From NCBI GenBank assembly GCA_051294905.1, contig CM119379.1, positions 4,774,001 to 4,838,000 on the forward strand: a stretch of DNA of 64,000 bases, given 5' to 3'. Positions within the stretch are counted from its first letter, which is position 1, and every line of letters begins with the position of its first letter. Below the pieces are notes generated by a model. The model ran no database searches. It was not told the DNA's origin and saw only the letters and a program-made list of their open reading frames with translations. This DNA comes from Botryllus schlosseri (lineage: Eukaryota). The translations under genes were made by a program, and so were the position numbers. Positions 8,027-51,423 of this stretch are shown here, piece by piece.

Positions 8027-8270
8027 GTGATCATGCATTATCATATGAATATTCTAAAGTAATTATAATCATAAAAACCAAACCGCTGAAAGTCATTACC
8101 ACCGCAAAAACAATTTGTATGATATTCACCAAACGCATCCCAACTCAGTATGCAGAAATTATTTGTAGAGTGCATACCGACAAAGAAATCATGAACACAA
8201 CCAACACCGAAAATGATAAACACGTTTCGCGTTACTATTGATACAAGTTCATTTCTATCGGGCGAAATGT

Positions 8271-14153: not shown

Positions 14154-14796
14154 AGTAGTATAGTAGATCGGTCGCGATTCGTAATGGGCTCTTATGGGTG
14201 CGGCGGTGACTCGCCTGGAAACTCGTGGTGGTGACTCGCCTTTTCAGACCCCCCTCTCGGCGGTGAGTCGCCATGTGTTCTTATGGGTGCGGTCGTGACT
14301 CGCCTTTTTTGCCATAGGCGGTGGCGGTGATTCGCCGTGAAAACTCGTGGTCGTGACTCGCCTTTTTTGCTATAGGCTGTGGTGGTGATTCGCCATGTAT
14401 TCTTACGGGATCTGTGATGATTCGCCATGTGTTCTTATGGGTGCGGTCGTGATTCGTACTTTCAGACATCTCTCGCGTGGTGTTGAATAGTCACCAACAA
14501 TAACCGCACAAACGGAAACGTGGCTTGTTGTGAGGATTAAGCAGTGCGACCTATATTCCGAATGACCTGCGCACTGAATTGTTTCAAGGCCAACCGCGTG
14601 CTACTATCGAATATTACACTAGACCAGTCAGTGCGAAATAGTTTGATCGTAAATTATGATATATGATATCGTAGTTTAGTCGTGTCAAATGACCGATCGT
14701 GTTCTCTTTCCTCACTATTGATTGCTACCTGAATAATACTTTCGGCTTATTCGCTGTTTCGCGCCTACAGAATAGTCTGCTGTTCACAACCACAAC
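14154..14796 (+). repeat. Pol-B1 left TIR (GGTGACTCGCC/GTGATTCGCC tandem units plus inner block)
   Basis: Reverse complement of 28761-29403 with only a few mismatches, mostly near the inner end. Confidence 0.95.
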
Positions 14797-14828
14797 AAGA
14801 ATCACAAGTATACACATTTATACATTCA

Positions 14829-14834
14829 TTTATT
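14829..14834 (-). terminator. Putative polyadenylation signal closing the Pol-B1 structural gene block
   Basis: AATAAA overlaps the protease stop codon; similar AATAAA sites lie just after the Pol-A protease (about 31397-31402) and after ORF 43525. Confidence 0.5.
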
Positions 14835-15276
14835 ACTCTGAAATCAAACACTTCACAAAAGCACGTCCAATCGTATCATTCGCTTTTTTATCATCGCCAA
14901 AATTATCCAAGTATTCCTCGGCTGAAAACCCTTGAGCTCTTTTTATCAAGAATGCAATAGCATGATCTCCACACACATCCGAAGTTTTACTCTGTAACTG
15001 TTTCTCAGTCACAGAAAATTCATCCGGCTCCAGGAACTCGATTATCTGAGGTTTTAGCGGTCCGAAACCTAGCGAATCATGAAAATGAGTATCGTCATCT
15101 CTGTATATAGACACCCAGTGAGACCCAGGCAAACTCGACTCATCGTAATTAATGGTGATAGCGAATTTTCCGCTAATTGGTTTCTTCGGCAACTGGTCTA
15201 CTGGATAAGTCCCTAGATATAGACTTTGTGTGTCAGGGTGGTTATAGAGAATATCATTGATCTCAGACGTATTCAT
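14833..15276 (-). CDS. Adenain-like (Ulp1/C5) maturation cysteine protease, Pol-B1
   Basis: GSHWVSIY (His), FHDSLG (Asp), QLQ, VCGDHA (Cys); likely start MNTSEI at 15276 overlaps the MCP stop. Confidence 0.92.
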   Translation of the reverse strand: MNTSEINDILYNHPDTQSLYLGTYPVDQLPKKPISGKFAITINYDESSLPGSHWVSIYRDDDTHFHDSLGFGPLKPQIIEFLEPDEFSVTEKQLQSKTSDVCGDHAIAFLIKRAQGFSAEEYLDNFGDDKKANDTIGRAFVKCLISE

Positions 15277-16544
15277 ATTTCGACGACTTGTCTTTTTTGA
15301 TTCAGCTGTAGAAGATGTTGAAACTCCTTCAAACATAACAAGGTTACGGAGGTTGGTAAAGGCTTCGACGTAGTCAAAACCAGATGCACAGTTCCTGTCT
15401 TATGAAGTTGATAACATCCCAAACTATTATCGGGTGTCAAATCAAACACAAAAAGAGTGTATCCGTTGACATAATCTTTGCGTGAAATATTTAAAGGTGC
15501 CTCGGATTCCCAGCGACCTGTCTGGGAGAATAGTGTCATATAACCTTCCAGTCCGCCGAGTTTATCAAAATCGAAATGAAATTCGCGTCCGTTAATTTGA
15601 CGCCCATCCACACTTAAAGAAAGATTTTGAACATCAAAGTGTTTAAAGTTGAATGGGTTTTTGACTCGAACACCGTTAAATGTCGTGGTCTCGACTAAAC
15701 CAATTACGATCTTCTTTGGCATGGTGCCGCTAACTAACTCTCTATCAATTTTCGACAAGCCCGCGGCGAATGTATGAGTCGACATTTGTAAGCGTATCCA
15801 GGGGTACTTGGCAGTATTCTTCTGTAATACAGACTTGTGTGCTAAGCTTACACTTTCAGCGATCTTCATCTGTTTGACATACACCTCCATTTCGAGTAAA
15901 ACAATTTGTACATCTTCCGCATCACCAAGCAGACAGAAATTATCTTCGTTACGTGTAAATTTTAATTTCATGTCGACATTATCCAACATACATCTAGACT
16001 GTTCAAAAAGACCCATTCGAATTTTTCCGATCAACTCTAACGGAGTGCTGTTTTTTGTAAGGTCTTTTCGTTTAACATATCCAGTATTCGCTGCACCAAG
16101 AACGTCCATAGATCCAGCGACATCTTTATAAAAACCTTGTCCTTGCACAAAACTCTCCGAGGCACCATGTGTATCATTCAACAACCGAGAGATATAAGCT
16201 TTGTACGCATGACAATTATCCGAATTTGTGATAAACTCATTTGAAATAGTTACATCGATTTGTTTGAAAAGAGAATCCAACATGTTATTGACCAGACCCA
16301 CTTGTGTATCGTTTGCTAAATCAGTTCCATCGCGTTTAGTGAGCTTCAAACGTAATCTCAAGAACGTGTTTTGTAGATCCATATATCGATCCGTCCTTGG
16401 TAATTGTACTTCCATGACATTACCTAAACTATGGGGTTTGACGACGACATATTGCGATTCCTCAATACTGGTTTGTGTGTGGGGTATACTAAATATGTTT
16501 AATCCCGAGTTATGACATTCTCGGGAACCCACGTGCATCAACAT
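15273..16544 (-). CDS. Double-jelly-roll major capsid protein (Polinton PY/hexon-like), Pol-B1
   Basis: 423-aa intact ORF; NPFNFKH, GYTLFVFDLTPD and C-terminal LQLN..R.V pattern typical of Polinton MCPs; homologous to 31865-33142. Confidence 0.9.
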   Translation of the reverse strand: MLMHVGSRECHNSGLNIFSIPHTQTSIEESQYVVVKPHSLGNVMEVQLPRTDRYMDLQNTFLRLRLKLTKRDGTDLANDTQVGLVNNMLDSLFKQIDVTISNEFITNSDNCHAYKAYISRLLNDTHGASESFVQGQGFYKDVAGSMDVLGAANTGYVKRKDLTKNSTPLELIGKIRMGLFEQSRCMLDNVDMKLKFTRNEDNFCLLGDAEDVQIVLLEMEVYVKQMKIAESVSLAHKSVLQKNTAKYPWIRLQMSTHTFAAGLSKIDRELVSGTMPKKIVIGLVETTTFNGVRVKNPFNFKHFDVQNLSLSVDGRQINGREFHFDFDKLGGLEGYMTLFSQTGRWESEAPLNISRKDYVNGYTLFVFDLTPDNSLGCYQLHKTGTVHLVLTTSKPLPTSVTLLCLKEFQHLLQLNQKRQVVEI

Positions 16545-16549
16545 AGTTC

Positions 16550-16921
16550 TTAGTCGAATATATCCTGTTGTTTACGACGACGTTTGGATGAAGTGTTCTT
16601 TGACTTTGTTTTTTTCCTTTTTATAGCTTTTGGGGTTAAAATTTTATCAATCACTCGACCGCCAGCTTGTTTACTTCTCTTGACAACACTAGACTTGATC
16701 GAGTTACCCCGTAATAGATCTCTCGCTATTTCACCTCCAGTTCGTAACAATTGACCACCAGCGTATTTCGCAATAGGTGTCACTAAACGACCGAGTGATT
16801 TAAACAAACTCCCGATACCGGAACCGGCTTGAACTCCACCACTAAAATATCCATAACCATCACCTGTCTGGTTATAATGACGATGGACAGAGTGATGATC
16901 ACACGTGAAAACAACTTTCAT
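16550..16921 (-). CDS. Basic core/pX-pVI-like precursor protein, Pol-B1
   Basis: QAGSGIGSLFKSLGR amphipathic segment; K/R-rich tail ending DIFD; position just upstream of MCP. Confidence 0.7.
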   Translation of the reverse strand: MKVVFTCDHHSVHRHYNQTGDGYGYFSGGVQAGSGIGSLFKSLGRLVTPIAKYAGGQLLRTGGEIARDLLRGNSIKSSVVKRSKQAGGRVIDKILTPKAIKRKKTKSKNTSSKRRRKQQDIFD

Positions 16922-17313
16922 AATCGCTTCCTAATGTTAAATGTAGCTTGCAATGAACGACTTATTATATTTATAGGTTCCCCAAACTCATCCCTGAGGT
17001 AAAGACATACAGAATCTACAACATCTTTTGAAACAGGGAAATAATACGGATTTGTCGCTACCCAATTATGCGTGACAATACCAGGTGTCAGCGGTATAAC
17101 TCGTAATAAACGCGCTAACGTATCTCCAAGTAAGTGAGGGTGAATAATATCGCAATACACAAACAAATATTGACCAATCGCCGGTTCGGTTAAAGTGAAA
17201 TCGATCTCCATGAGGGCTAATTCACAATATCTCGTCGGGATGTTGTTGATGGTGAGTAGTCTGTGCTCAAAATCAGCCCCGAGGATAGAGGTGGTTAACG
17301 TCACTATTTTCAT
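16918..17313 (-). CDS. Penton/minor-capsid-like paralog 3 (short), Pol-B1
   Basis: ELALME...VYCDII.P...GD..ARLLR...PYYFPV...LRDEFG motifs shared with the two adjacent ORFs. Confidence 0.75.
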   Translation of the reverse strand: MKIVTLTTSILGADFEHRLLTINNIPTRYCELALMEIDFTLTEPAIGQYLFVYCDIIHPHLLGDTLARLLRVIPLTPGIVTHNWVATNPYYFPVSKDVVDSVCLYLRDEFGEPINIISRSLQATFNIRKRL

Positions 17314-17981
17314 CGTGCGTGGAGTGTCAATGTGGTCTCTATATCGTGTACTAACTGACCGTATTGGTCCCGGATGGTGATTTTTATATCGCGGACGTGG
17401 TTACTCGACACTGGGAAATAAAACGGTTTTTCATATACAACTTCTTGTCTCATACACGTCTCGTTATTTACTTGGATCACACGAAGCAATTGACTCATGT
17501 AATCACCCACCGGATGATATCGTAGTACATTCATACACACAAAAAGATATCTGAGGTGGGGTTGAGTTGGTTTAGGTTTGATCGATGTGACATTACATAC
17601 TGGTGTCGACACTTGATCAACTACACTGAAATAATTCGTGAATATATCCGTGAGGTGGAGTGTGATACGTTTCGAGTAACGAATTCCGAAAAGTTCATCG
17701 TTGATTCTTTCGGTGAAACAGTGTTTGAAACTTTCAGATAATATTCTTCGCGTCAACTCGAGGTTGTTTGCATAATTCCCAAGTGGTGATAGGTACGCTT
17801 CTACTATTCGATCTTTCTCATTATGTAGCTCCCAGAGTGCTTGATCGCGATTGATTATAATTCGATCAAGAGATTCACTGACAAAACTCATATCCACCAA
17901 CGCAAGCTCATTACAAATAATTTCATTCGGTAACACCACCGAGAATTCGCCTTTGGTGCCAGACAACGTGATGTAACTCAT
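17310..17981 (-). CDS. Penton/minor-capsid-like paralog 2, Pol-B1
   Basis: ELALVD...GDYMSQLLR...KPFYFPV...IRDQYG. Confidence 0.75.
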   Translation of the reverse strand: MSYITLSGTKGEFSVVLPNEIICNELALVDMSFVSESLDRIIINRDQALWELHNEKDRIVEAYLSPLGNYANNLELTRRILSESFKHCFTERINDELFGIRYSKRITLHLTDIFTNYFSVVDQVSTPVCNVTSIKPKPTQPHLRYLFVCMNVLRYHPVGDYMSQLLRVIQVNNETCMRQEVVYEKPFYFPVSSNHVRDIKITIRDQYGQLVHDIETTLTLHAR

Positions 17982-18808
17982 ATTGAATCAACAGCTCTAC
18001 GACGGAAGCGTAGGGTTACTGTCACTGGTGCTTTTCGAAATTTAATAGGGTTGCCAGCTGCGTCACGTAGATAAATTCGTATCGTTCTAAAATTGTTTCT
18101 CGCTAAAGCAAAGAAATATGGTTTTGGGAATATGTTGATTTGGTTTTCATTCGGTTTAGCGGTTACAGTAACCACCCATAAAAGTTGTTGCAGCTTGTTA
18201 CCGTGTGGTCTTGGTTGTATCAGATCACAATACACATAAACCTTATCAATCCGTTCCAACTTTATCGCGGGTGTAAAGATAAATTCTACCACTCCGCGGC
18301 GATGAGATAAAACGCGTCTAAATGTTATTGTATCCAACACAGAACCAAGTGGTATCAATCCGTAAGGTTCGGGTGAATCATGCGTGGTACGGGGTATGTG
18401 TTTGACGCTAGAGTCTGCGGTATCGGTATTTATGGGTACACCCCGCTTGTGTCTTTTTTTACTCGTGACTAATCTTCTGAATGTGATTCTAAAGTCTCCG
18501 AATCCTTGTAAAATGAAAATGTCCCCCATGTAATATTTCTCGTACGATTCTAACATTTCACCGATGCTGTAATACGAGCCTTCGGGAATATAATACCGAT
18601 CGGTGTATCCTTTCGCATCGACAAATCCAAAACCGATACTTTTCGCTGTCACTTCAATTCGCGGTTGAAAATCATTGGGGAAGGTCAGCTCACATAACCC
18701 TAGCTCATGGCGACTCATTTCTAATTCTTTGTAAAGTTCCGTTTGAAAATCTGTGCTAGTATTCAGAAATTTATCCAAACTCGCATTCGAAGGTAGAGTC
18801 AACCACAT
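17978..18808 (-). CDS. Penton/minor capsid protein paralog 1, Pol-B1
   Basis: LTLPSNAS...LGLCELTFP...VYVYCDLIQP...KPYFFAL...LRDAAG; canonical Polinton minor-capsid pattern; likely ATG at 18808. Confidence 0.8.
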   Translation of the reverse strand: MWLTLPSNASLDKFLNTSTDFQTELYKELEMSRHELGLCELTFPNDFQPRIEVTAKSIGFGFVDAKGYTDRYYIPEGSYYSIGEMLESYEKYYMGDIFILQGFGDFRITFRRLVTSKKRHKRGVPINTDTADSSVKHIPRTTHDSPEPYGLIPLGSVLDTITFRRVLSHRRGVVEFIFTPAIKLERIDKVYVYCDLIQPRPHGNKLQQLLWVVTVTAKPNENQINIFPKPYFFALARNNFRTIRIYLRDAAGNPIKFRKAPVTVTLRFRRRAVDSI

Positions 18809-18821
18809 TTTATTGTTTCTT

Positions 18822-19037
18822 TCAACATATACGATGAGGTGATGGATTCGGTAATGAATACCCAAGTGAAGAAGACAGTAGCGTTAAATATATCTCACGA
18901 TCCACCCCGACAGAAATTTGATATAATGAAAACACGATTACACACACTAACATACAAATCTGTACAATAAACACAATCTGGTTTTTCAGACTGTTCGAGA
19001 CTTGACCCATGCGAGATGAGACGGAATCAGAATCCAT
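18822..19037 (-). CDS. Small two-transmembrane protein, Pol-B1
   Basis: Two hydrophobic stretches and LLSSSLGYSLPNP, conserved as LLSSCVGYMLPNP at the same position in Pol-A. Confidence 0.7.
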   Translation of the reverse strand: MDSDSVSSRMGQVSNSLKNQIVFIVQICMLVCVIVFSLYQISVGVDREIYLTLLSSSLGYSLPNPSPHRIC

Positions 19038-19064
19038 AGTTTGGTTGAACAACATTTTCAGAGT

Positions 19065-20135
19065 CTATTTATACAAATCCGAGACCCAAGAATTAAATGT
19101 AGACGGATAACCCAACCATTTTACAAGATATTGCGTTTTCTTTCCTTTCCTGCGAGTAGACAGGATTTTTTCGATATTGTAAATATTATTATTTTTAGTT
19201 ATTGGTTGTAACTCTTCACGCTGAAAGCAACCATCTATAACTTCACCATGGTAGTCTTTCAATTGATAAGTAGGAGGGTCACCTTTACGACATTGAGATA
19301 CGAAAAGGATTTCTTCGGTCCAACTCGCCAAAGCACTTTTTACAAAATTACCACGTGATTTCGAAATCCTGACGGGTGTGCCGATAGTTAGTTTGGGTTT
19401 TTTAGGGGTCATGTCACCGTATAACCTATGGAAAATTTGTTCTTGATTTGAATAATCAACATCCGCTGGAGGACACCCTATAGCCACGTGAAAAGTAGTG
19501 TTATACCCCTGACATATCTCAGACAGGACATTAACATAATTCAAAGTCTTATTATGCGTGAAATACCGGTATAACACTTGCTTCAGAGTACGAATAACAC
19601 GCTCGCATATCGATGCTTTCAGTTCACTATTTGTATGAAAATGTCGCACATTGTTCTCTTTTAAGAAAGTCTGAAACGTACGATTAGTAAACTCGGAACC
19701 TTGATCACTTTGAATAACATGAGGTATACGATCCTAAAATGATTCCTTGAATCCGCGAATAATACCTTGCGAGGTTTTGTTCTTGAGTGGATACAGATAT
19801 AAAAATCGGCTGAAACAATCGATCGTCACCAACACATATTTGAAATTGTCGGTTTCTTTTGAAAGATTTTGCATATGCATGAGATCGGTTTGATACTGAA
19901 CACCGAGACCGGATGTAATCACTCTAGGTCTCTTAAATTTCTTACGATATGGAAAATGTTTCGTGTACGCATCCTTGCTCGAAAGAAACTCCTTGACTTT
20001 GGCTCTATTCCGCCCTCTAGAGAATACGTATGCACCGCGGTAACTACCAGGTAGCCCTGGCGTGAAATACTTAGTATGGCTACCATCCGTATCGGTTCGG
20101 GGTCTTGGGTGTACGACCACTTTTCGTCTTGGCAT
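19065..20135 (-). pseudogene. Retroviral-like DDE integrase with C-terminal chromodomain, Pol-B1 (one in-frame TAG)
   Basis: QTDLM (D), QSDQGSEF (D), CERVIRT (E), YLVKWLGY chromodomain; the two ORF pieces are in the same frame, separated only by TAG at 19736-19734. Confidence 0.93.
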
Positions 20136-20475
20136 GTTGAGTCTTTACTTTGCTTCGTTGGCTACTCGGTGATGGTGAGTGGGGTTTAGGAATCCTTGAT
20201 GGTTCACCCTTGATCAGGCGTCGCAGCGCGTCCAACTCACTAGCCGAAAATAGATTCCTTTGTTCTGATATATCGATTTTCATCGGTTGATTCAGTGTGT
20301 CGTGTTTTGTTTGATAACGATTTAGTGCGTCGTTATATAAGGCTAATTTTCGTTCTTGGGGTATGTTCATCTGTAATATGTCGCTCATACATTTGTCGAT
20401 ATCCAAATTCAATTTCTGAACTTCAACCTCATTGATCGGGTTCGGAGTTATGAAGATTTTTTTGAAAGAAGTCAT
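20080..20475 (-). CDS. Conserved Polinton hypothetical protein (between core precursor and INT), Pol-B1
   Basis: 131 aa, ERKLALYNDAL motif (EKLALYRHGI in Pol-A); near-identical copy at 63403-63798. Confidence 0.7.
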   Translation of the reverse strand: MTSFKKIFITPNPINEVEVQKLNLDIDKCMSDILQMNIPQERKLALYNDALNRYQTKHDTLNQPMKIDISEQRNLFSASELDALRRLIKGEPSRIPKPHSPSPSSQRSKVKTQHAKTKSGRTPKTPNRYGW

Positions 20476-20819
20476 TTTTTGAAAAGATTACCGAGTAAAC
20501 CAGTGACGACGGGTAGGATGCTTGATAATAGAGTCATAAACATACCACCACTCTGGTTAACCATGCGTTTCTTATGTCGAATAGGGATGTCTTTCCTGAC
20601 AAGTCGACGTAAACTACATTTATGAGCTGATAGTCGCTTTCTTTTATACTTTGAAAGAGGGATGTTGCCGTTTAAAATGTTCTATGTACAATCGCATTTA
20701 CACTCGATCAATTCTTTGCTGGCTCCCGATATAATTTGCTTGCGTATCTCGGTTTTACTTTTATGTAGGAACTCTAGTGTGGGTATATGCCGCCGTGTCT
20801 GAGCTGGTACCTTGGTCAT
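20472..20819 (-). pseudogene. Basic core (pVII-like) precursor with in-frame TAG, Pol-B1
   Basis: Manual translation MTKVPAQ...ECKCDCT*NILNGNIPLS...NQSGGMFMTLLSSILPVVTGLLGNLFKK; TAG at 20684-20682; homologous to Pol-A 36545-36952. Confidence 0.75.
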
Positions 20820-20852
20820 TTTGAGTTTAAAGTCGTCTCTGCGCTTGGCTAT

Positions 20853-21464
20853 TTATACCATCGGGCTATAAACCACCATGGTTTCACCAGGAAATATATT
20901 GGTCATAACTCGTCGATTTTCAGGTGCTTCTTGCGTGAGATCAAGGAATAAATAACTATGAGGTTGTCTAGCAGCGTCACGATAAGCCTCTGTTAAAAAT
21001 CTAGAGTTTGGATACATTTGTCGACCAAGAAAACTGATCTGCTGTTGGTCGCGCGGATTCTTGAAAATCACCATATACGAGCTTGAAAGACTCAAGTCAC
21101 GTGCCCCTTTACCCTTGTGGTACAGGTTCTGCGTGATATAGCAAATTGAATTGGCTGAATGATGTGAAAATCTTGTAAAGTAGTCTGCAATTTTCGCGGT
21201 CTCAGTCATGAAATCATCCACTATAATCAAGGTGTCTTCAGAGCAAATCTTCAACTCTTCTAAAATATCTAGACCGGCGTGGAATTCTACGTTATGCATC
21301 GTCTTGAAAACCTCCTGATAATTATTGTAACAATATACGACCCTGGATACACTAGGTTTAATCATTGATGTCGCATGTCTAATCAACTTTGCAACAAAAG
21401 TAGTCTTCCCACTTCTTGAAGGACCACTCACAATACACGCGAATGGGTGGATCAATTCCATCAT
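20853..21464 (-). CDS. FtsK/A32-like genome packaging ATPase, Pol-B1
   Basis: Walker A GPSRSGKT, Walker B LIIVDD, RFSHH, ITQN, VIFKNPRD. Confidence 0.93.
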   Translation of the reverse strand: MMELIHPFACIVSGPSRSGKTTFVAKLIRHATSMIKPSVSRVVYCYNNYQEVFKTMHNVEFHAGLDILEELKICSEDTLIIVDDFMTETAKIADYFTRFSHHSANSICYITQNLYHKGKGARDLSLSSSYMVIFKNPRDQQQISFLGRQMYPNSRFLTEAYRDAARQPHSYLFLDLTQEAPENRRVMTNIFPGETMVVYSPMV

Positions 21465-21498
21465 TTGTTGTTTATTGAAACTCGATAAAGTGCATGTG

Positions 21499-21506
21499 TT
21501 TATATA
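21499..21506 (-). promoter_or_regulatory. Putative TATA box upstream of ATPase/structural block, Pol-B1
   Basis: TATATAAA 35 nt before the ATG; conserved at 62373-62380 in Pol-B2. Confidence 0.55.
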
Positions 21507-21644
21507 TCAACAAGGTTGGGAATATCCACTGTTGTAGTCGTCGTGTTCTAGCGGAATATAAAAACCCAGTAAAGTTCGATTCAACAATTTTCCACGGGTT
21601 ATGAAATCTTCATCTGTTCCTCATCGTCAGGGGAAGTTGTAGTG

Positions 21645-21956
21645 TTACGAACGCTTCAGGTCGTCAAGCAGCTGACCCCAATCTGTAAAATAATAAATCA
21701 CATAAGAGGATTCATAATAAGAGAGGATTCATAGCGCTTTAAAATCTAACAGTGTTACTATACCAAACTATAGACCTTACCACGGATCACAAGTTTTGGT
21801 GGTCTGCTTTTCATCAATCGGGTATCGTCGACGTTGGGAGTTGTTTGGTAGAACCAAGAATCATGAACCGTGGTAATTCTCGCTCCAAGGTAATCATCTC
21901 TACATGTAAAGTGTATAAATCTAATGACATGACAGACTTTAGATAGCGTTATCAAT
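21645..21956 (-). other. Putative spliced exon pair between pPolB and ATPase (exon 21956-21781, 98-nt intron 21780-21683, terminal exon to TAA 21645)
   Basis: TTTTCCAG acceptor, GTAAGG donor, TTTTACAG acceptor; same 98-nt intron and same stop position in Pol-B2 (62099-62196). Confidence 0.55.
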
Positions 21957-22076
21957 CTGGAAAACAAATGATACGTTACCTCACACAAGTAAATCAAACA
22001 TATAAACAAGTAATAAACAAGTAAATCAAACACACAGAATATACAAATAAAATACAATAACACACAAAATATACAA

Positions 22077-25000
22077 TTACACATTTAATGGCAGGGTTGA
22101 CACACCATCCTCGAGCACTCGACGTTTGGCATAGAAATAGGAAAATGTTTTACGCTGTTGTTTGTACGTATAGACACCCCCATCTCTGCACCGAAACCCC
22201 TTGTTCACTCCCCCGACAGATTGCCTAGATGTCAAGAAACCCAGAAAAGTTTCGAAATCGACTGGGTTGGATTTCTGGAGACCTTTGGAAGCCAATTTTT
22301 TCTTTGGACCATCACAAAAGTAATTTTTGGATTGGAGACCACAGAAAGATGTACCACCTTCATACTCCACTTTCATCTAACCCGGTTGACGAAGGTAATA
22401 CGCGTACGTGTCTTTGCAACACTGCCTCGAGCGATCAAAAGAAACCGGGTCAACCAAAAACTCAGTTCGGTGCTCATCACAAAAATAGCGTGGAAACCAG
22501 TTCTCATATTCAAGATAAAATTCATCCCATTTCTCGGGGATAAGAATATCATCGAATGAGGCTGAATGCGAGAGATAGAGGGAGTCTGTGTCCATCATTA
22601 ATAGCATGAAGCACTCGTCACGGAAATATTTACACAAGCAGTCATAAAAAAACGACAACATCTTGAGCTTAGCATTGTTATACACCCAGAATCCTACTTG
22701 AATACAGTTACCACACTTGATCGTTTTAGGTCGCTTCGTTATTTCAAATAGATCAGCGTTCAATTCGTCACATTTCACAAAAAAACGATCCTTCACGTTG
22801 GTGCCTAATTCGCTTTTATCACAGTAGGAGGTTCGTTTGAATTTACGCGGGTTCATCAAGACGCGGCCATAGCTGCTGTTTCCGGCTAATTTTTGTGTCA
22901 GGGCAATGATCTCTAGGCTAGGGTCGCGGTCCCCAGCTCGTCGACAGTCTGAGACATTTTTCGCAAAGTTGTCAAAACAGGTCTTTTTTGTGAATTCGAC
23001 CGCCTCATGAATTTTGGATATAACCAACCCGTGCTCTACATACCACTTGATCAAGTCAGAGGTCAACAAGATTTTCTTGCCCCAGTATGAAGCAACTAAC
23101 ATGCGCGTGGGTTTGGTGAGTAATTTACGATCAATGGCAAACTGTTTCATGTGACCTGTCAAATGCTCGCGAGACACCATCGTATTTTTGAATATCGGAC
23201 ATAGTTCAACAAACTTCCTTTGTAAATGTTTTGGCGTAAAAATATCAACTGATAAACATCCGAAGAATGTATCGGTCATTACCATCTCCATCAATTTTTG
23301 TGCGGTGACAGACTTGGCTCGAGTCAATTGTGGTTGAATACCATTAAGATATCGCACAATATCAGGATTATCCTGTTTCTCCGTGTGCCAGTCGCATTCC
23401 CATTTACATATGACTTGGTAATTGAGGCTTTTGTAATAATCATGAACACGTTTAGTCCGTTCTCGACGTTCCAAATCATCACAGCCAAATCTGCACTGAT
23501 GTGCATGGAAATGACATCCAAGAAAAGACAAGATTACCCCTTGACCAGCTGAATTACGATAGAACCCATCAGCCGGATAATTACGAGCTCCTACACGGAT
23601 TTCAGGTCCATTAAAAGCATGGTGGACATGTACATTGTGGGTATACGAATACCAGTTTAGCCATTGAGCTGCTGTCTCCCCCCATTTCGGCGCGGTCTTC
23701 ACCGGTTTGAATTTAGTACACTCAGCATCAAGTGGTTGCCAATGTACCGGGAAACCAGTTGGACTAGGTTCACTCAAAGCAAAAAGGTATAACGAATTGC
23801 TGTCCAGCCCTGTTACATGTTGGGTAATCTGAGCGTTTTCCTTATAAAAAAATTCTTTGATTCGAGTTTCACCCTGTTTTTGATATCGATGGAAAATGAC
23901 TGACGGTCCACCCACTAAATTATCTCTGAATAGCGAAACCAGATCCTGGTGTTTATCATTGAACAAGGTGAAATCACGTGGAATGCTATTGAAAAGATGC
24001 CTCGATACAACCCCGGGTAGGGAGACGGCTTCTTTGAATATATCCACACTGAATTGACTTTTGAAAGATTGAAATTGTTTTTTTAACCCCTCAATGAAGT
24101 AATGAGTATCGATTGCGTTGTATCATTTGAGATAATCACGTAAAGTGGTCATTTTGTTATCGTTCCAAACCTTCAGACAGTTTTCATATTCAGCTGTGGA
24201 TATATTACGACCTTTTAGCGAGCTGTAAAACTCATCGTGGCTAGGTAGACTCGTATAATCCAGCTTTTCCAAACTAGTCAGAAACTCATACAGAAAATGA
24301 CCTTTAGCGGCGCTACATTTGAAGGCTTTCAAATAAGCATCGTACGAGAACCCGGGTGCCAAGTAATTTACAATGTCCAAAAATTTGAGTCTGTTGGTTG
24401 TCAACGAGAGGAAGTTGTTACCGCGCTTCAATACACTCAGATTTTCATCAACGAGTAAACCCATCAAGTACTCTTTGAGACAGTTCAAGTCATACCGACC
24501 ACCATTGAACGACAAAACAGGGATTTGTTTTAAATATCGCATAAACTCCTCTTGTAAACGTTCAAGAGGTATTTTTTTCTCGGAAGGATCGAGTGCTTTC
24601 ATTTCGGTAATTTTAGTTTCGAGCATGTCCAAGTAGTGTTGATTTTCCGTCTGTAACAACCTAAATGACTCACTTTGAATATCATGAAAATGATCAACCA
24701 TTTCCGCACACAAGTCGTTTGGGTCACCGTTCGAGACAATTACATACGGTTCCAAGAACCCTTCCACATTAGAAGATATGCTAACAGAAATGGGAATATG
24801 TTTGCACTCCCATGAAGTTTTGGAGGAATCTGGAATATCACACTTCTCAAACATACTCTCGATATCAAACGCGATACGGTATTTGAAATAACGAAGCTGA
24901 TGAGGAACAAACACCCCTTCTAGATCAAGTTTTTCAAATATGTTCAGAGGAGGTGTATACACGCCGCCGGGAAACACTTCAACAGGTTCCGTTGTACATT

Positions 25001-25670
25001 TGTGTCTGGTCAATTCATACTGCTCATAAAAAAATCTTTGACAAACATCACATCGATAGCTCTCTGCATAACGGTTCACGTTAGTAATGAGACAGAAATG
25101 GTTGCTTTCTAAATGTAAGTACACAGGTTTCGCTTCAAATGTACTACGACGGAGTGCGACAGCTTTACCCTCAGTTTTTGTGTACACAAATATGGCCACA
25201 TTAAACAAGTCCTCGATATCGTCCAGCATATCAAGAGTTACACCAGATTCTACATTGATACCATATACCGAAGTGAATTGTTGGGCCATTGCTTTTGTAT
25301 CTTTTCCTAGCGAGTGACCAATACAGCGGAAAGCACAGAGATTGTCTCTGTACCGATTTCGATTTGTTTGATGGGTAAATGTCATTATACATCTCGCTCT
25401 CGCAAGCCACGTCGGTAGTTTAATACCAACACAACCAATCAACACACCCTCGGTAGGATATTCATATATCTGCGGGTTGATCAGACAGGTCGATTGGGTA
25501 TTTTGGAAAACATCCGACCGCTTACGATTGCTGACGCTAGTATTGCGCACGTGGTTACTGTTCACTACATACGATTTCACCGCTTGCCAGTTCTGAGATG
25601 TAATTTGCTGCTTTTGGTTGTCGATCTCTGGCGGTGCGTGTTCTTCATGATTCCAAAGGTGTCGAGTCAT
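22077..25670 (-). pseudogene. Protein-primed DNA polymerase B (pPolB), Pol-B1; two in-frame stops
   Basis: FDIESM, SFNGGRYD, GLDSNSLY, KLAGNSSYG, MDTDS; vOTU-like DNLCAF...H, Zn finger and VSR-like insert. Stops TGA 24125-24123 (TGG in Pol-B2) and TAG 22379-22377; all three pieces share one frame. Confidence 0.95.
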
Positions 25671-26028
25671 CTGTAAAATTGATACCGCGTGGCTACATTC
25701 AACACTTGGGAATATTAAACTAGTGTTACTTACAATGGGGTTTCTTTTTCGGTATCTTCCTTGGATCTTTATACTAAACAAGTAACACGTCAAACTATGT
25801 CGCTAACATAGTAATATAACAGATAACTCACCAGTAGACTTGTGTACCCCACTTAATCATTGAGTTCGCTTTGTCTGTTCAACAACAAAATCATTACATC
25901 ATGCTCAATAGTTCTACACAGCAATAACTCACCGTTTCAATTCTTTAATCCCACGGTTGTTTTGTCTGGTGGATAAATAAATAACAAATTATATTCATAA
26001 ATCAAAGTATTCGCACCGAATAACTTAC
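25671..26028 (-). other. Four-intron/micro-exon cassette upstream of pPolB, Pol-B1
   Basis: GT-AG introns 26028-25966 (63), 25932-25875 (58), 25831-25774 (58), 25733-25671 (63); exons 33/43/40 nt; ends CAG|ATG. Confidence 0.75.
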
Positions 26029-26335
26029 CTATTAAACCCTTAATCCCTGTGTCAATGTAATCTCTATATGTAAACTATATAAATCTAATGACATAACCGA
26101 CTTGAGATATGAATTAATGTTATCCACCTGGAAAACAAATGATACATTAACACACAATACAAAAAAAAAATCATATTAAACAAACATAATGTACAATTAA
26201 ACCCCAATAACGCCACACACACAATATATACAAGTACATCTCAATAAAATTCAATGACAGGATTATTTTCTTGGGTCGCTATGAAAATGATTGAGATCAT
26301 GAAAAGACACATCGGCATCGTATTTCGATATCAGC

Positions 26336-27043
26336 TCAACCAATCAACAAACCGTCAGTGGGGTATACGTAAAACTGTACATTAGCCAGACAGACTGCCC
26401 TGTATTTTGTATCTGGTCGAGAGTCTTGTAACACATCTAGTGCCGTTTCCAACCTTATAGATTCAACAAATTCATCGAATTCAGCTAGTGATGTAATCGC
26501 TGCTGGGACTTCTAATACGCTATCGATGTTCGCCGACGCATGAAAATACCGAAATCTCCCAGCCGCGACGTTATGTAAAATGATTCCATACGCAAAATTC
26601 ACTTTGAAACGAGTCGACTCTGAGAAAAATATCGCTTGGATATCGCGGAAAACATCCGGTATCTCACGATCGATGACTCGGATATTATACACGCGCCGAC
26701 TCTGATTCACTACATATGATTTTATCGCTTGCCAGTTCTGGGATACAACTTCTTGGTATTGGTCGCCTGTCTCTGGTGGTGTGTCTTCTTCCTCGCGAAC
26801 ACGACTCCGTCTGCGTCGACTCACAGACTTCAGCCCCACCTGACGCGCTATATCTGCGTGGTTTGGTTGCATTTCGATCGTTGTCGTAGAGTTGCGTTCT
26901 GTGGCTTCAACTCTTAAATCAGGCGTCATAGGATCACCAGAATTAATCGCATCAAAGATATCCGCATTCTCTTCAAATTGCGATTCAAATGCATTTGGTT
27001 CATAACCAAATTTATCAAGATTATCTATCTGAGCCTCGGCCAT
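26336..27043 (-). CDS. Stand-alone terminal-protein-like ORF (paralog of pPolB N-terminal domain), Pol-B1
   Basis: SQNWQAIKSYVVN...FKVNFAYGIILHN...YFH...RPDTKY...LLIG matches the Pol-A pPolB N-terminus (FKVNYAYGFLLYN...YFH...RPDTKF...LLGC). Confidence 0.8.
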   Translation of the reverse strand: MAEAQIDNLDKFGYEPNAFESQFEENADIFDAINSGDPMTPDLRVEATERNSTTTIEMQPNHADIARQVGLKSVSRRRRSRVREEEDTPPETGDQYQEVVSQNWQAIKSYVVNQSRRVYNIRVIDREIPDVFRDIQAIFFSESTRFKVNFAYGIILHNVAAGRFRYFHASANIDSVLEVPAAITSLAEFDEFVESIRLETALDVLQDSRPDTKYRAVCLANVQFYVYPTDGLLIG

Positions 27044-27124
27044 TGTACAATAATTAATCTAACTGCTCCAACCAACGTTTATGTCTGCGACAGTGAAGTA
27101 TAACAATCTGATCGTGGTGTTGGC

Positions 27125-27132
27125 TATTTATA
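27125..27132 (-). promoter_or_regulatory. Putative TATA box for the TP-like gene, Pol-B1
   Basis: TATAAATA about 80 nt upstream of ATG 27043, in the divergent intergenic region. Confidence 0.45.
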
Positions 27133-27504
27133 GATTTAATTCGATAGTAGCACGCGGTTGGATGGAAAATAATTCGGCGCGCAGGCCATTCGATATATAG
27201 ACCGCCCGAATACTGCGTAATCCCCAGAACCGATCGCGTTTCCGACTTTCAGAACCGGACGTATTTAGTGTGTCACAGATCAAAACGCGGCCGCAGATAT
27301 CTGATTTTTCAAAATCGCACAGCGCACTGCGCTTTAGTGAATTTCCTGTTTAGCGAAACGGGCGATTTTATTGTGTCACACATGTCATACGCACCCGCCA
27401 ACATCTGTTTTTTCGAAATCTGAGTGGTGTATTTCACCATTTTAACACATTGTGGTGTCATTCTCATGGTTTACTTTTTCAGTTGATAGTTACATATACT
27501 CGTT

Positions 27505-27858
27505 ATGGCAACTAGCGCGATTATTGAGAATTACCTTCTCTACTATCATAACTTGACAACCCCCACATTGAGCGAAACGGAAAAATTCATCCACGGAGTA
27601 CTAGATTTCTATGTACATGGACAAAACGTGAGCCGTGTTCGAAAGTGTGATTTTACCGCATTGGTTAACTCGATTCGATCATACGGCATCGACTGGAATG
27701 GGGTTTTTAGTGTCATAAGCATTGCAGCGATGAAAAGTGACATACGCACCCTAGCGACGTACAGAGATTTAGCAACAGACATCTTGAATACTCACTACAG
27801 TACATTGATAAGTGACTGGGTAAGAAGAAAATTCATTCGTGTCGTTTGTCACTTGTGA
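27505..27858 (+). CDS. Hypothetical protein (117 aa), B-family cargo
   Basis: Intact and conserved at protein level in Pol-B2 (50436-50828); no motif recognised. Confidence 0.7.
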   Translation: MATSAIIENYLLYYHNLTTPTLSETEKFIHGVLDFYVHGQNVSRVRKCDFTALVNSIRSYGIDWNGVFSVISIAAMKSDIRTLATYRDLATDILNTHYSTLISDWVRRKFIRVVCHL

Positions 27859-27973
27859 ACGGCATCCTTTCTTACAGAACTCCTGTAAAGTTTATTTCAA
27901 TCCAAGTCTATTCACGCGGGCCATCAGGATTATACAAAGACTGTTAACTCACTCAATACCACGTGCCTAATTC

Positions 27974-27981
27974 TATAAATA
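27974..27981 (+). promoter_or_regulatory. Putative TATA box upstream of the OB-fold gene
   Basis: TATAAATA about 38 nt upstream of ATG 28019; the Pol-B2 counterpart reads TATAAATG. Confidence 0.45.
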
Positions 27982-28018
27982 TCGACGGGTTTGTTGATGA
28001 CTCCCACTTTATCAAACG

Positions 28019-28630
28019 ATGACATCGAACAGCGTCAACACTATGCAAGTCGGAGCAACTTCAAATTTTCACGTCGGTGTCAAATTCGTCTCATCACCCA
28101 AAAGAGGTGGCGTTAGCCGATATCTCAAAGGTATATTCATCGATGGCAATAACGAAGAGATATCTTTCACGTGCTTCAATCGTGATTTGTTCGGGAACAT
28201 TGAGAAAGCATTCACCAAACGAAAAAAACTCATGGTCAAATCCGGTTGGGTTCAAATTGATAAATTTACTGGAAAACCTGCTGTATTACTTGGTCGGGCT
28301 TCGTCAGTAACTCTACATGGAAAATCGAGACATACGACTGAAGAATACCCATTATTGACCTGTGAATCGGTATACGGAAATAAAGATGAATACGTCTCGA
28401 TCGCCGCTGCTTGTGTTTCTCGAGAGGAGAAGATGGTCAATTCTGGTGCCGGAAAGGAGTTGAAATTATACAGTTTTACATTGAAGGATGATACTGGTGA
28501 GGTGGTTTTGGACCAATGGAACAAAGCCTCACTCGTACCCGGGAAGAAATATCAACTCACTCGTGTTAAAAACTGTGTCGGCAGATTGAAAATCGATCCG
28601 TTAACTAGACTTGTTGAATTGAAAGAATAG
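28019..28630 (+). CDS. Putative tandem OB-fold ssDNA-binding protein (RPA-like), Pol-B1
   Basis: Two about 90-aa beta-rich halves; IDGNNEEISFTCF and FTLKDDTGEVVLDQW resemble the RPA/SSB OB-fold D.TG.I..T.W strand pattern. Confidence 0.65.
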   Translation: MTSNSVNTMQVGATSNFHVGVKFVSSPKRGGVSRYLKGIFIDGNNEEISFTCFNRDLFGNIEKAFTKRKKLMVKSGWVQIDKFTGKPAVLLGRASSVTLHGKSRHTTEEYPLLTCESVYGNKDEYVSIAAACVSREEKMVNSGAGKELKLYSFTLKDDTGEVVLDQWNKASLVPGKKYQLTRVKNCVGRLKIDPLTRLVELKE

Positions 28631-28760
28631 TTTGCATATTTGAATACCACAATACAATATTTCATTTCACGTAAAATGTATGACCTATGTGTTTCGACAA
28701 CTGGGTTAGCGCAGTGTTGTTCTACTGATCGAGGTGTGAAAATTGCGCTATCGCGGTGAA

Positions 28761-29403
28761 GTTGTGACTGTAAACAGCAGACTATTCTGTAGGCGCGAAA
28801 CAGCGAATAAGCCAAAAGTATTATTCAGTTAGCAATCAATAGTGAGGAAAGAGAACACGATCAGTTATTTGACACGACTAAACTACGATATCATATATCA
28901 TAATTTACGATCAAACTATTTCGCACTGACTGGTCTAGTGTAATATTCGATAGTAGCACGCGGTTGGCCTTGAAACAATTCAGTGCGCAGGTCATTCGGA
29001 ATATAGGTCGCACTGCTTAATCCTCACAACAAGCCACGTTTCCGTTTGTGCGGTTATTGTTGGTGACTATTCAACACCACGCGAGAGATGTCTGAAAGTA
29101 CGAATCACGACCGCACCCATAAGAACACATGGCGAATCATCACAGATCCCGTAAGAATACATGGCGAATCACCACCACAGCCTATAGCAAAAAAGGCGAG
29201 TCACGACCACGAGTTTTCACGGCGAATCACCGCCACCGCCTATAGCAAAAAAGGCGAGTCACGACCGCACCCATAAGAACACATGGCGACTCACCGCCGA
29301 GAGGGGGGTCTGAAAAGGCGAGTCACCACCACGAGTTTCCAGGCGAGTCACCGCCGCACCCATAAGAGCCCATTACGAATCGCGACCGATCTACTATACT
29401 ACT
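28761..29403 (-). repeat. Pol-B1 right TIR
   Basis: Reverse complement of 14154-14796. Confidence 0.95.
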
Positions 29404-37608: not shown

Positions 37609-40600
37609 TTACAGAGATAAAGGCAATGTATGAATTCCATCATTAAGCACAATCCTTTTATAATAACCATAACTCAAAGCACTTCGATATTGCTTATACG
37701 TAAACATATCGCTCCCATAGCAACGAAAACCGCTATTGACGCCACCCGTGATCGATCTATTTTGAAGAATGCCTTTGAAATCTTTGAAAGTTTTGTTGGC
37801 CGTTTTTTGAAGCCCTTTCGAGTTGTACTTATCGGTGTCGCCTTTGCAATAATAGGTCTTGGAATTCAGGCCTATAAATCCATGACCGACCCATTCCTCT
37901 TTGAATAAACCAGGTATACGTTTCGAGTAATTGCGAACCTCAATGCAGCAAGCTTTATCAGTTTTAAAACCAACGGGATCTCGTTCAAAATCGCATTTAT
38001 GCTCTGCACATGCGCGAGCCACGAACCATTTGTCGTGATTTTCAAAAAATTGTTTTTTCATGGAAGGCTTGATGAGAGAATAGATCGTATCGGAGCTTAA
38101 GCTTATGTACGCCGAATCAGTATCTGTTTCGAGGAAAGCCCAATCGCTATCGTCCAAATACACATGCAGACAGTCATATAGGAACTGGAGCATTCTCAGC
38201 TTGGCACAGCAGAATATAAAGAAGCCCACAAAGATTGGGTTTTCGTGACAAATGTTTAGCGGACGCGTAGCTACTTCGAGCAAGCCTTCATCGCTCTTAT
38301 CAATTTCAACAGCATCGACAAAAATTTTTTTTTCAACGCGCGATGGTAATTCTTCCGACGTAACGTATTCGTGTTCCCTATATTTATTAGGGTTTTGAAT
38401 AGTACGGCCGAAAGCACTATTTCCAATCGTCTTCCAGGTCAACGCCTCCATTTCACGGGCCGGATCTTTCGGGAGGACATCGCCTTTGCTACGCTCAGAG
38501 GATACCCGCTCAACGAAGGGTGTGAAAACTTGTTTTGGTTCATATTCGACAGCTTGGAATACGCGAGTCACGATCATGCCACTTTTCAAGTACCACTGAA
38601 GCAAATCCGTATTAAACAACTGTTTTTTCGTGAAATAACTAGAGCCCAGAAATTTTTTTGGAAACTTAATATTGTTTTCCTTGGCGTATTCACGCATATG
38701 TTCACCGATATCGCACTCGTTTACTTCCATATGTTTGAAAAAAGGAGGTAACTCTTCGAATTTCGATTTTAAATGGTCGGGACAATGAATGTCACACTCG
38801 ATTGCACCGAAAAATGACCCGTCTAGCGTGCGCTTGAGCAACTGCGCTTCAGTGAGATAATAAGCTTTCGTGACTTTACGCTCGAACTTTGAGACAAATT
38901 GCGCAATTTCGGGGTCTCGTTTCATATTCGTCCAAACGCACTCCTTCATTCGGATAACGGTATATCCCAATTTTTCCAAATACTCCGTGTTTTGTTTGGT
39001 GAGCTCACGCCTCTCGGCGTTCTCTTTATCAGGGAAGCAGCTCCTACAAGCGTGGTAATAGCACCCATCGTACTGAAAGATGAGTTTACCGGCGCTCCCG
39101 TCGATAAATAGGCGTTTATTTCCGATTCTCACTTGACTACCGTTCCAAGCGTGCTGAATTTTGATGTCACGAACGTGACTTTCGTATTCCAACCATTCAC
39201 GCTCCGCATGAGTAGGCCAAACGCGCTGTTCATGGAATTTTTGCTTTTCCTCATCAAAAATCCACCTTATAGGATAACCCGTTGGCATATTTTGATTTAT
39301 GCATCCCAAATACAAGGCATTTGCGTCATATCCTACTACTTTCTTGACGGTTTTAGCACTGTCACCGTAGCGAAGACTGCGTATTTTCGTTTCATCTGCC
39401 ATAGCGTATCGTGACGTAATCTGTGACAAACCTCCTATCAAGTTGTTCAGAATCGTTTCGTGAAGGTCAGCATTGGCCTTATTCAGAAGAGTGATTTCAT
39501 AGCAATCACGAAACATCAGTCTACTTGCTATATTCGGAAGGCTCACGTTACCCTTGAACATATCGATACCAAGCGTTTTGTAAAATTCGAAATTGTTATT
39601 CAGCGCAGTTAAGAAGCCAATGACGTCACCTTCGTTGTAATATCGGAGAAAATCACGGAATGTGGTCATACCCTCGCGTTCCCATACAGCGACGCATTCT
39701 GCGTATTGCTCTTCCGTTATATTCGAATTGCGGAACGCGTTGTAAAACGATTCATGACTCGGTAGCGACGTTTCGTCGAGGCGTTCGATGCTATCAGGAT
39801 ATTCGTTGGGGAAATAAAATTTTGCGTTCACCCCATCCCCGTACAGCTTCATGTAAGCATCCAAACTATAACCTGGACTCAGGAATAGCGAAATGTCCAG
39901 AAATTTTAATCTGTGCGTTGCGATTGTCAAATAGGCGCTGTTCCTTTTCAAAACGAAGAATCCGCTTTCCTTGTGCAAGGATTTGATTAAATATTTCTTG
40001 CATAAATTCAGATCGTAGCGCGAAGAATTGAAACCGATTATGGGTATCTGATCAAGCCACGTATGAAAGCGATGTGAAATATTATCCAAATAGGATCTTC
40101 TATTGGTAGGATCGATCAATTTCCGTTCTTCAATCAAATTCTCAAGTTCGATTATTTCGCTAGCGTAAGATTCTCGCATTTCGGCTGAGGCGAGTTCCTG
40201 TACGCGATAAATTTCCCCAATCATTTCATCGACCAACGTCTGCGGGCAACCCTCGGATATGAAAGTTTTAGTTTCATTCGTTACGTTATTTGATAAGGAT
40301 ACGGAGACGGGGACGTGCCGATTAACGTATTCCACTTTTGCAGAATTAGCTCTGAGCTCATCCTTCACGAGCATGGATTCAAAGTCAACACATACGGTAC
40401 GGGAAGAATCTCTTTTGTTCCTCAACGAAAATGCCTTCGGATTCCAATTGTTCGAATACGGTGGGTTTCGGTCGATATACGCCGCTAGCATATTTCCGAG
40501 TCTGGGACGTTGTGCATTTTTGTTTTATATGCTGCATCATATTGTCCTTAGTCTTGAAGAAAAACTTGCACAATTCACAAAAGAATGTCTCGGAATAATT

Positions 40601-41485
40601 TTCGATATTTGTAATCAGGCAAGAATGACCACTTTCCATGTGTATATGAACCACTGGTCCATCCGCTTCAGACTGTCGCAATAAAAATGGTTGATGATCG
40701 CGTTTTTCGTAAACAAGTATCTTTACGTGAAAACATTCCTCGACTTTGCTTAGTTCATCGAGTGGTACACCATCATCTATAGGGATACGATATCGTTCAC
40801 GGAATTGAGATGCCAATAGTGCGACGTGCTTCTCGTCTCGTTTTTTCTTGATGAAATGGGATAAGCGTCGAAAGAGGCATAGCGAATCGTTAATCGGTCC
40901 TCCTTGTCTATTTCGAATGAACGCTCTAATATGACGACATTTTGTTACCTCCTTAGATATCGATGCGGTGGGGCAGCCCAATAAAACTCGTGGCATTTCG
41001 TACAAGAAAAATTGGATATGTAATATAGCAACGCAGTAAAACTTAGTGTCCGGTCTTGCTTGTCTCGCCTGCTCGTAAGCAGCTGATAAATCGATTTCGT
41101 TGATAAAACGATCAAAGTCCTCCCGTGAAAGTATAAGTGTCGGTAGATCCAAAACAGCATGGGTTGATTGAGGATGAAAATAGCTATGTCTTTCCGTCTC
41201 TCGATTATACAGCAGGAAACCATATGCATAGTTCACTTTGAATTGACGCAATCTTCTCGGGTATATCGATGACATGCGTGCATGAATATCATTCATACCT
41301 CTCCCGATCAGACGTACATTGATCGCCTCTCTTGCACCCCTTGCAACCCTCCTGCTGTTAATCCATTCGGAATCGATAATCGAGTTGGAGTGCGATTGCA
41401 AAACCTCTGTTGCGTCGTTATCAAAACCGAGCGATTCATCGATGATGAAGCTAGCATCTTCCTCGTAGCGTCTTCGACGAGCCAT
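37609..41485 (-). pseudogene. pPolB with fused TP-like, vOTU-like, Zn-finger and VSR-like domains, Pol-A (one frameshift near 40390)
   Basis: DFESM, GFNSSRYD, GYDANALY, KTIGNSAFG, ETDTDS; DSLCLF...GH; CELC...H..C; QYDGCYYH; YRMC/VDFES junction shifts frame. Confidence 0.95.
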
Positions 41486-50828: not shown

Positions 50829-51064
50829 TAAGGTGTGAAACGCCGCGCAGTATCGAGAGGGAAAGGATTGTTACATAATAGAAATAAAAAGCGAGTCACC
50901 TAAGCGCGTGAAAATGAATCCTATAAATGGATATCGCTGCGTGTCGTACTTTATTGATCTGGACATCATCCGCGGGTTGCAACAGTTAGATTGAGCTATA
51001 GAGAACGACGTATTTGGCGAGCTGAGTATATTCAAGAGCGAGTCGACGGTTAACTACTTAATAG

Positions 51065-51423
51065 GTAAGTTATTCGGTACGAATACTTTGATTTTTGAAT
51101 ATAATTTGTTATTCGATTATCCTACAGACACAACAAGCGTGGAATTGAAGAATTGTATTGGTGAGTTATTACTGTTCAGAATGATAGGAGCATGATGTAA
51201 CGATTTTGTTGTTGAACAGACAGAGCAAACTCAAGGATTAATAACAACACGCAAGTCTACAGGTAAGTTATCTGTTATATTACTATGTTAGCGACATAGT
51301 TTGACGTGTTACTTGTTTAGTATAAAGACCCAAGGAAGATACCGCCAAAGAAACCGCCTTGTAAGTAACGCTGGTTTAATATTCGAAAGTGTTGAATTTG
51401 ACCCTGTGTTATCGCTTCTACAG
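51065..51423 (+). other. Four-intron/micro-exon cassette upstream of the TP-like ORF, Pol-B2
   Basis: Introns 51065-51127 (63), 51161-51219 (59), 51263-51320 (58), 51361-51423 (63); exons 33/43/40 nt; CAG|ATG at 51424. Confidence 0.75.

Follow-up and report, generated by a model that had tools for sequence, protein, structure and literature searches.

A family of Polinton elements in the genome of Botryllus schlosseri carries its terminal protein (TP) in a separate gene, which stops at the predicted vOTU cleavage site and lies upstream of a protein-primed DNA polymerase (pPolB) lacking the core of the same domain. We consider it probable that the Polinton replication polyprotein has here been divided into two functional parts, derived from two pPolB genes in tandem, and that the free TP primes replication.

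The window analyzed here, a stretch of 64,000 nucleotides from an assembly of 495 Mb, contains two elements of this family, termed B. Polinton B1 (14154..29403, unstranded; 15,250 bp) displays the hallmarks of Polinton/Maverick elements, namely, long terminal inverted repeats (TIRs; 644 nt, 98.8% identical), AGTAGT-type ends (5'-AGTAGT) and a 6-bp target-site duplication (CTAGCG). Element B2, a second B copy, lies on the opposite strand to B1 and starts at ~48800. Judging from their size and motifs, the B1 ORFs at 14833-21464 presumably encode integrase, packaging ATPase, cysteine protease and capsid proteins; Pfam returned AAA/Pox_A32 matches for the ATPase ORF and no match for the protease-like and capsid-like ORFs. 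The TP-less pPolB of B1 (22077..25670, minus strand) belongs to the active lineage and, in this copy, contains two premature stops (24123-24125 and 22377-22379), and that of B2 (52617..56201, plus strand) is broken into several frames. The family pPolB scores above the Pfam cut-off of PF03175 (protein-primed PolB), and the motifs Exo I-III and Pol A-C are all present in 10 of the 16 split copies with an active-type polymerase.

The B1 ORF at 26336-27043 (minus strand, 235 aa) ends in LLIG-TGA, and so does the B2 ORF (51424..51912, plus strand; 162 aa), which has its native start. At the stop position, which in B1 is 26336..26338 (minus strand) and coincides with the predicted vOTU cleavage site, the fused form has the Cys codon that follows LIG. 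The pPolBs downstream (from 25670 on the minus strand in B1 and from 52617 on the plus strand in B2) keep both flanks of the domain and miss 79 codons at a single junction (~25493 in B1); the QNW-to-LIG distance is 134 versus 54 residues, one further codon having been lost upstream of the 79-codon deletion. What is left of the TP at the start of the B1 polymerase (25434..25670, minus strand) ends in LIG before Cys80, and the vOTU catalytic pair, Cys112 and His191 (25098..25337, minus strand), is intact. Both the separate ORF ending at an LLIG stop and the in-frame loss of about 79 aa at the same place in the two polymerases had been reported for B1 and B2 by an earlier, sequence-only reading of the window, and both recur elsewhere in the genome. 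Pattern searches recovered the stop allele in 25 genomic copies, along with 2 near matches having the Cys codon, and the deletion junction 28 times, whereas the reversed control patterns matched nowhere in the genome, so that the split cannot be ascribed to chance. The homology past the stop, previously put at about 17 codons, is likewise real and reaches ~23 codons of vOTU remnant in the least-deleted copies, nearest to the fused copies L073 and L074. The stop codon is TGA in 24 of the 25 split copies and TAA in one. A retro-processed origin of the 79-codon deletion was rejected, because its junction is not bounded by GT-AG and can be explained by 3 nt of microhomology (GCG).

The extent of the domain and the choice of comparator had to be corrected. 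The TP domain of B1 occupies 26336..26824 (minus strand) and not the whole ORF, as had been claimed: residues 1-73 (26825..27043, minus strand) are the first 73 codons of a separate, neighboring 297-aa gene, which a deletion of ~1.25 kb has brought into frame with the TP. This join is found in 16 of the 25 split copies and is absent from B2. The 297-aa gene, located upstream of the family pPolB (L063:2778-3656), is lost or cut to 73 codons in most split copies; its product has no Pfam family, and its Atlas matches are all below 0.9. Pol-A, the third pPolB of the window (37609..41485, minus strand), in which TP and vOTU are fused, had served as the comparator; it belongs to a distant family and is frameshifted, and we rejected it as the ancestor of the B-family split. 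The proper comparators are the fused copies within the B family.

The 148-residue TP domain was modeled with a pLDDT of 93.7 from a 92-sequence alignment (36 from the single sequence), in the order beta1-alpha1-beta2-beta3-alpha2-beta4, a little-finger/PAD-like arrangement of a four-stranded sheet and two helices. A VIA-align comparison with 48,161 chains retrieved the little-finger/PAD domains of Pol eta, kappa, iota, IV, Rev1 and Dpo4 at Z 4.2-5.0 (rmsd 3.1-5.0 over 83-109 residues), scores that are all weak, given unrelated top rows at 5.3 and a caution level of 8 for the tool. According to the accessible text of Krupovic et al. (10.1101/2024.03.18.585575), such little-finger matches are a signature of Polinton TP domains. 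The identification of the domain as a TP is thus supported at the level of the fold; of the expected similarity to known TPs, the little-finger fold was recovered, whereas neither the PRD1 TP nor the adenovirus TP is among the 50 structural matches listed. In BFVD, the highest-ranking match is a protein of Drosophila-associated adintovirus 2 (E 4.1e-4), and a Foldseek search of the PDB with the model gave no match at E<=0.001. The domain has no Pfam family, its Atlas matches are all below 0.9, and a near-length word search returned one protein.

The model places Thr212 of the RPDTK motif (26408..26410, minus strand) in the alpha2-beta4 loop, where it is the predicted linking residue. This column is Ser/Thr in 89 of the 92 aligned sequences, and the Thr is conserved in all 80 family TP cores scored. 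In the accessible parts of the sources, linking hydroxyl residues are described as sitting in the alpha2-beta4 loop with Gly/Pro nearby (PMC11161782), and Ser or Tyr are named as linking in the D1 TP set, Thr being known from other TPs (10.1101/2024.03.18.585575). Since the 79-codon deletion takes away the end of alpha1, beta2, beta3, alpha2 and the linking loop, the remnant on the polymerase would be unable to form a TP domain.

Fused, split, TP-less and dead-polymerase forms coexist within this one family. A protein search of the genome, in which 150 of 328 candidates were scored, returned many same-family copies with the TP fused in frames of ~1,300 aa. Motif-C patterns identified 97 polymerase genes, 59 active-type and 38 dead-type, as lower bounds. 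Classified by position, including 10 initially unresolved loci that were fetched, they comprise at least 54 fused elements (35 active, 19 dead; "fused" denotes distance to the TP core, the Cys codon having been read directly in 52 copies), at least 25 split elements (16 active, 9 dead), at least 15 TP-less-only elements (6 active, 9 dead) and at least 3 truncated polymerase genes. The split layout is therefore not fixed in the family, fused relatives being the majority (54 of 97 polymerase genes). Such a majority is, to the letter, what had been named beforehand as evidence against a split, yet the split is not refuted by it, because young split copies exist. Three of them, located on C1, C15 and C16, share 99.96-99.99% identity over 17 kb, with a fourth at 99.5%; a further three, which have a dead polymerase, show 99.0-99.7% identity, and each of the 7 has its own 6-bp target-site duplication. 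The TP frame is intact in 22 of the 25 split copies, the breaks being unshared, and the polymerase frame is open in 16. TP-less polymerases retain LIG|C in 32 of 32 cases, the vOTU Cys in 31 of 32 and the vOTU His in 32 of 32.

The dead lineage, whose polymerase is catalytically inactive, accounts for 38 of the 97 family copies (e.g., L070, L042 and L055). Six of 8 copies have changes in Exo II, and an open frame of more than 1,030 codons is preserved with the vOTU dyad intact. Dead and active types have diverged to a dS of 0.6-1.0; dN/dS is 0.18-0.22 inside the dead lineage and 0.07 in 20 active copies. When only alleles missing from active copies are counted, the shared variants of the dead lineage occupy 28 of 1,605 0-fold and 15 of 307 4-fold sites (ratio 0.36, p 0.002), which indicates that the lineage is conserved as a protein. 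Inactivated archaeal polymerases of the PolB2 type are likewise family-B enzymes that have lost their catalytic residues and are conserved as proteins. Unlike these, the dead lineage here is the protein-primed polymerase of a mobile element, with its vOTU intact; we found no description of a dead Polinton polymerase lineage in the literature searched.

The anatomy of the region between the two B1 genes is informative about their origin. Past the TP stop, 26060..26335 (minus strand) holds a decayed vOTU remnant, then the 3' end of a dead-polymerase gene and its 3' flank; 26326-26060 is 77-78% identical to the last codons and 3' flank of dead-type copies. A second copy of the pPolB 5' leader follows (25671..26042, minus strand), which contains three GT-AG intron-like segments and begins at the first donor; this leader copy (26042-25661) lacks the region upstream of that donor, and the native promoter region is absent. 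In B2, the 5' leader of the TP gene (51058..51423, plus strand) is 73% identical to the polymerase leader (52231 onward). This anatomy indicates that two whole pPolB genes once stood in tandem, the first of them dead-type, each having since lost what the other kept; the stand-alone TP gene is accordingly derived from a dead-polymerase gene by truncation. Of the proposed tandem duplication followed by reciprocal loss, the two tandem pPolBs and the reciprocal deletions stand, whereas duplication of a single intact gene is one of two possible beginnings. Alternatively, the tandem may have joined two genes that were already defective, given that the upstream copy is of the dead lineage and that TP-less elements exist alone; the TP-donor dead gene and the TP-less gene are each found alone in the genome. 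A tree of 34 remnants cannot order these events, because split and TP-less copies are intermixed in it (7 changes, at least 4 of them forced).

We propose that two pPolB genes came into tandem, the upstream one from the dead lineage. In the upstream gene, a stop arose immediately behind the TP and ~3 kb of the remaining sequence was deleted; the downstream gene, which lacks the TP core with the linking loop, retains the polymerase together with the LIG|C site and the vOTU dyad. As the stop lies at the predicted cleavage site, the stand-alone TP would equal the product that the vOTU would cut from the fused protein, and, if the polymerase can trim its own remnant, the mature TP and polymerase would both match those of fused elements. 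By homology, the free TP would prime replication at the AGTAGT ends. The polymerase gene, without a promoter of its own, is probably expressed from the upstream promoter, its transcripts being spliced at a captured acceptor. A splice-acceptor-like site deriving from the next gene is retained at ~26128, and the ATG at this site, which 45 of 50 native-classed matches possess, has been replaced by GTG (as in B1) or GCG in all 25 split copies. This loss represents a single event and would be in keeping with a non-coding leader exon of the polymerase. Co-resident elements probably draw on a common supply of TP and polymerase, allowing all forms to coexist and recombine.

The elements without any TP bear directly on such sharing. 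The complete sequences of 5 of the 15 TP-less elements, read from end to end, show TIRs and target-site duplications in every case and a TP core in none. Three of the 5 additionally give no match to the capsid, protease, integrase and ATPase genes and form a lineage 93-97% identical. L071, L072 and L139 (C11:16027956-16042091, C15:3043945-3057957 and C11:3271754-3286594) are 14-15 kb long, with TIRs and a TP-less active-type polymerase; TP, capsid, protease, integrase and ATPase genes gave no match in them, and their left arm derives from a diverged sister family. Lacking the TP core, TP-less elements would have to obtain TP from other elements, and dead-type carriers, their own polymerase being dead, would have to obtain polymerase in the same way. 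The TP thus probably works in trans, and the dead-polymerase and TP-less lineages together point to trans-complementation among Polintons, of which we found no description in the literature searched. At the same time, the spread of TP-less elements weakens the argument that split elements need a TP of their own.

The stand-alone ORF could, accordingly, be a passenger, with TP borrowed from the 54 fused copies and the ORF refreshed by recombination, an explanation that we regard as unlikely. Besides the existence of TP-less elements whose ends are intact, including the three of the 93-97% identical lineage, it draws on the tracts identical to fused alleles that many split TPs contain; these tracts imply that recombination between split and fused copies continues and that the low dN/dS of split TPs is partly inherited. 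Pairwise dN/dS is 0.24 for the stand-alone TP (20 distinct split copies) versus 0.18 for the TP of 52 fused copies. By comparison, the TP remnant on the polymerase is relaxed (0.58-0.65; 17 distinct copies), with the vOTU of the same polymerases at 0.17 versus 0.16 in fused ones. Refreshing is impossible for a haplotype group of 13 split copies, which is seen in no fused copy and differs by ~17-18% from every one of the 52. Its shared variants comprise 7-12 synonymous changes and 6 conservative replacements (dN/dS 0.15-0.25), with no shared stop and no shared indel, although the 0-fold/4-fold test on these variants is significant under one of three masks and non-significant under the other two (p 0.014, 0.105 and 0.107), as a passenger would allow. 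Deletions accumulate only past the stop, where three different shared ones lie within 90 nt, and none falls within the TP core. The ~1.25-kb upstream join preserves the frame in 16 of 16 copies, but it reflects one event. Purifying selection on the TP while stand-alone is thus moderately supported by these sequence comparisons, in line with the earlier expectation that the ORF does not evolve neutrally.

It is also conceivable, if quite improbable, that the free domain no longer primes and instead binds the ends or acts as a competitor, perhaps in the manner of the dead polymerase, so as to favor its carrier in the use of shared replication proteins; its descent from a dead-polymerase gene and its pairing with a dead polymerase in 9 of the 25 split elements would suit such a role. 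The predicted linking Thr is nevertheless kept in every family TP core scored, and the other 16 split elements have an active-type polymerase. Even less credible is the notion that splicing or readthrough of the stop links the two ORFs again, the protein still being a fusion. Several GT-AG intron-like segments do occur in the leader region, the stop is TGA in all but one copy, and a GT stands just before it. However, this GT precedes TGAG, unlike the GTAAGT/GTGAGT donors of the element, is mutated in L033 and L039, and would join the polymerase acceptor out of frame. Readthrough, for its part, would enter a post-stop sequence that ranges between 28 and 90 nt and lies in several frames, and the stop of one copy is TAA. 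A working split with a free priming TP remains the reading that we favor.

The same boundary is seen outside the family. Among the best 150 of 587 distant homologues, 142 align at beta4, and 27 of these 142 end 26-28 residues past the RP motif, at the boundary used by the split, compared with 21 over the next 32 positions. The same end is repeated within some 90% clusters, and a cluster from Elysia marginata holds a 259-aa form together with a 1,422-aa fused form. Many of the distant TP homologues carry N-terminal C2H2 zinc fingers. Loci of the short homologues were found in 0 of 183 and 0 of 128 candidate stretches of viral contigs; metagenome contigs provided one locus for the distant homologues, which is fused. 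As a phase-2 intron at the Gly codon combined with a prokaryotic gene caller would yield the same end, the boundary-ending homologues serve as a lead only. Should they be genuine, stand-alone TPs ending at the cleavage site would recur in about a fifth of the homologues sampled, providing a repeatable route to the adenovirus arrangement. It is conceivable, although less likely than not, that the family has distributed its replication functions over co-resident elements: TP and polymerase activity would be common property, the conserved pseudo-polymerase of 38 of the 97 copies would serve, without catalysis, to capture them, and the split would have arisen when a pseudo-polymerase gene donating the TP and a TP-less active gene came together in one element.

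The split-TP layout as such is already known from a coral polinton: the Stylophora pistillata element StCAV has a separate TP gene and a catalytically intact vOTU on its pPolB, as described in the accessible text of Krupovic et al. 2024 (PMC11161782). The B family shares both features and, relative to what that text describes for StCAV, shows in addition a remnant with the cleavage site on the polymerase, readable duplication scars and coexisting forms. The same source proposes that adenoviruses derive from polintons with an already detached TP, giving one example and, in its accessible text, no route (PMC11161782). With the canonical Polinton/Maverick pPolB (TP-vOTU-Exo-Palm), the family has in common the domains, AGTAGT ends, 6-bp duplication and integrase-, ATPase-, protease- and capsid-type genes; it differs in that, in 25 of the 97 polymerase-bearing copies, the TP is freed by a stop codon and not by proteolysis. 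The separate, PRD1-like TP upstream of the polymerase is as in adenoviruses, whose pTP and DNA polymerase are expressed from one spliced transcription unit, a possible further likeness. The proposed convergence on the adenovirus layout holds for the separate TP and fails for the protease: the vOTU dyad is intact here and the TP is a bare domain, whereas the adenovirus vOTU is inactivated and pTP bears large helical additions, as stated in the accessible text of 10.1101/2024.03.18.585575. Resemblance to the PRD1 TP extends to the separate gene, the alpha/beta fold order and the position of the linking loop; the phi29 TP, also the product of a separate gene, is assigned an unrelated helical fold in the accessible text of the same source, and the separation of TP in the B family is secondary.

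What appears new is that the route to the split passes through a dead polymerase conserved as a protein, and that TP-less forms coexist with the others; both are undescribed in the accessible literature, a body outside which subscription papers and Repbase mostly fall; the accessible parts of PMC8502044, 10.1101/2023.08.22.554363 and 10.64898/2026.10.13.758929 mention neither a split route nor a dead pPolB lineage. Fused, scarred split, TP-less and dead-polymerase intermediates stand side by side in one genome. In addition, the position of the predicted vOTU cleavage site (after IG) is indicated by a naturally occurring stop, which delimits a priming domain of 148 residues with a clear candidate linking residue, making the predicted TP and vOTU assignments easy to assay.

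In RNA data from 6-13% of each of three raw runs and from one contig set, depth over the TP gene and the polymerase gene is ~0-2x, and no joint is seen there. A conserved 203-aa ORF at 28019-28630 (plus strand), without a Pfam match and with the look of an OB-fold single-strand DNA-binding protein by eye, has the highest RNA read count of the replication-side genes. Deep read coverage with poly(T) loose ends and sharp boundaries is seen at 21444-21656, where most reads run on into other sequence, and probably stems from a transcript of another locus sharing that piece. B2 contains ~6 kb of additional DNA (56200-62370) between polymerase and ATPase, with fragments that, judging from a motif, appear to resemble a hAT transposase. 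A 4.6-kb element at 4104-8745, with 475-nt TIRs (99%), AGTAGT ends, a 6-bp duplication and no long ORF, is likely a non-autonomous Polinton. The ends of Pol-A, at 12155-43982, have 82-nt inverted arms (93%) that flank B1 on both sides, and B1 appears to be inserted within the terminal repeat region of Pol-A. Pol-A also carries a gene for a BIR (inhibitor of apoptosis) domain at 42445-43026 (plus strand; PF00653, E 1.2e-18).
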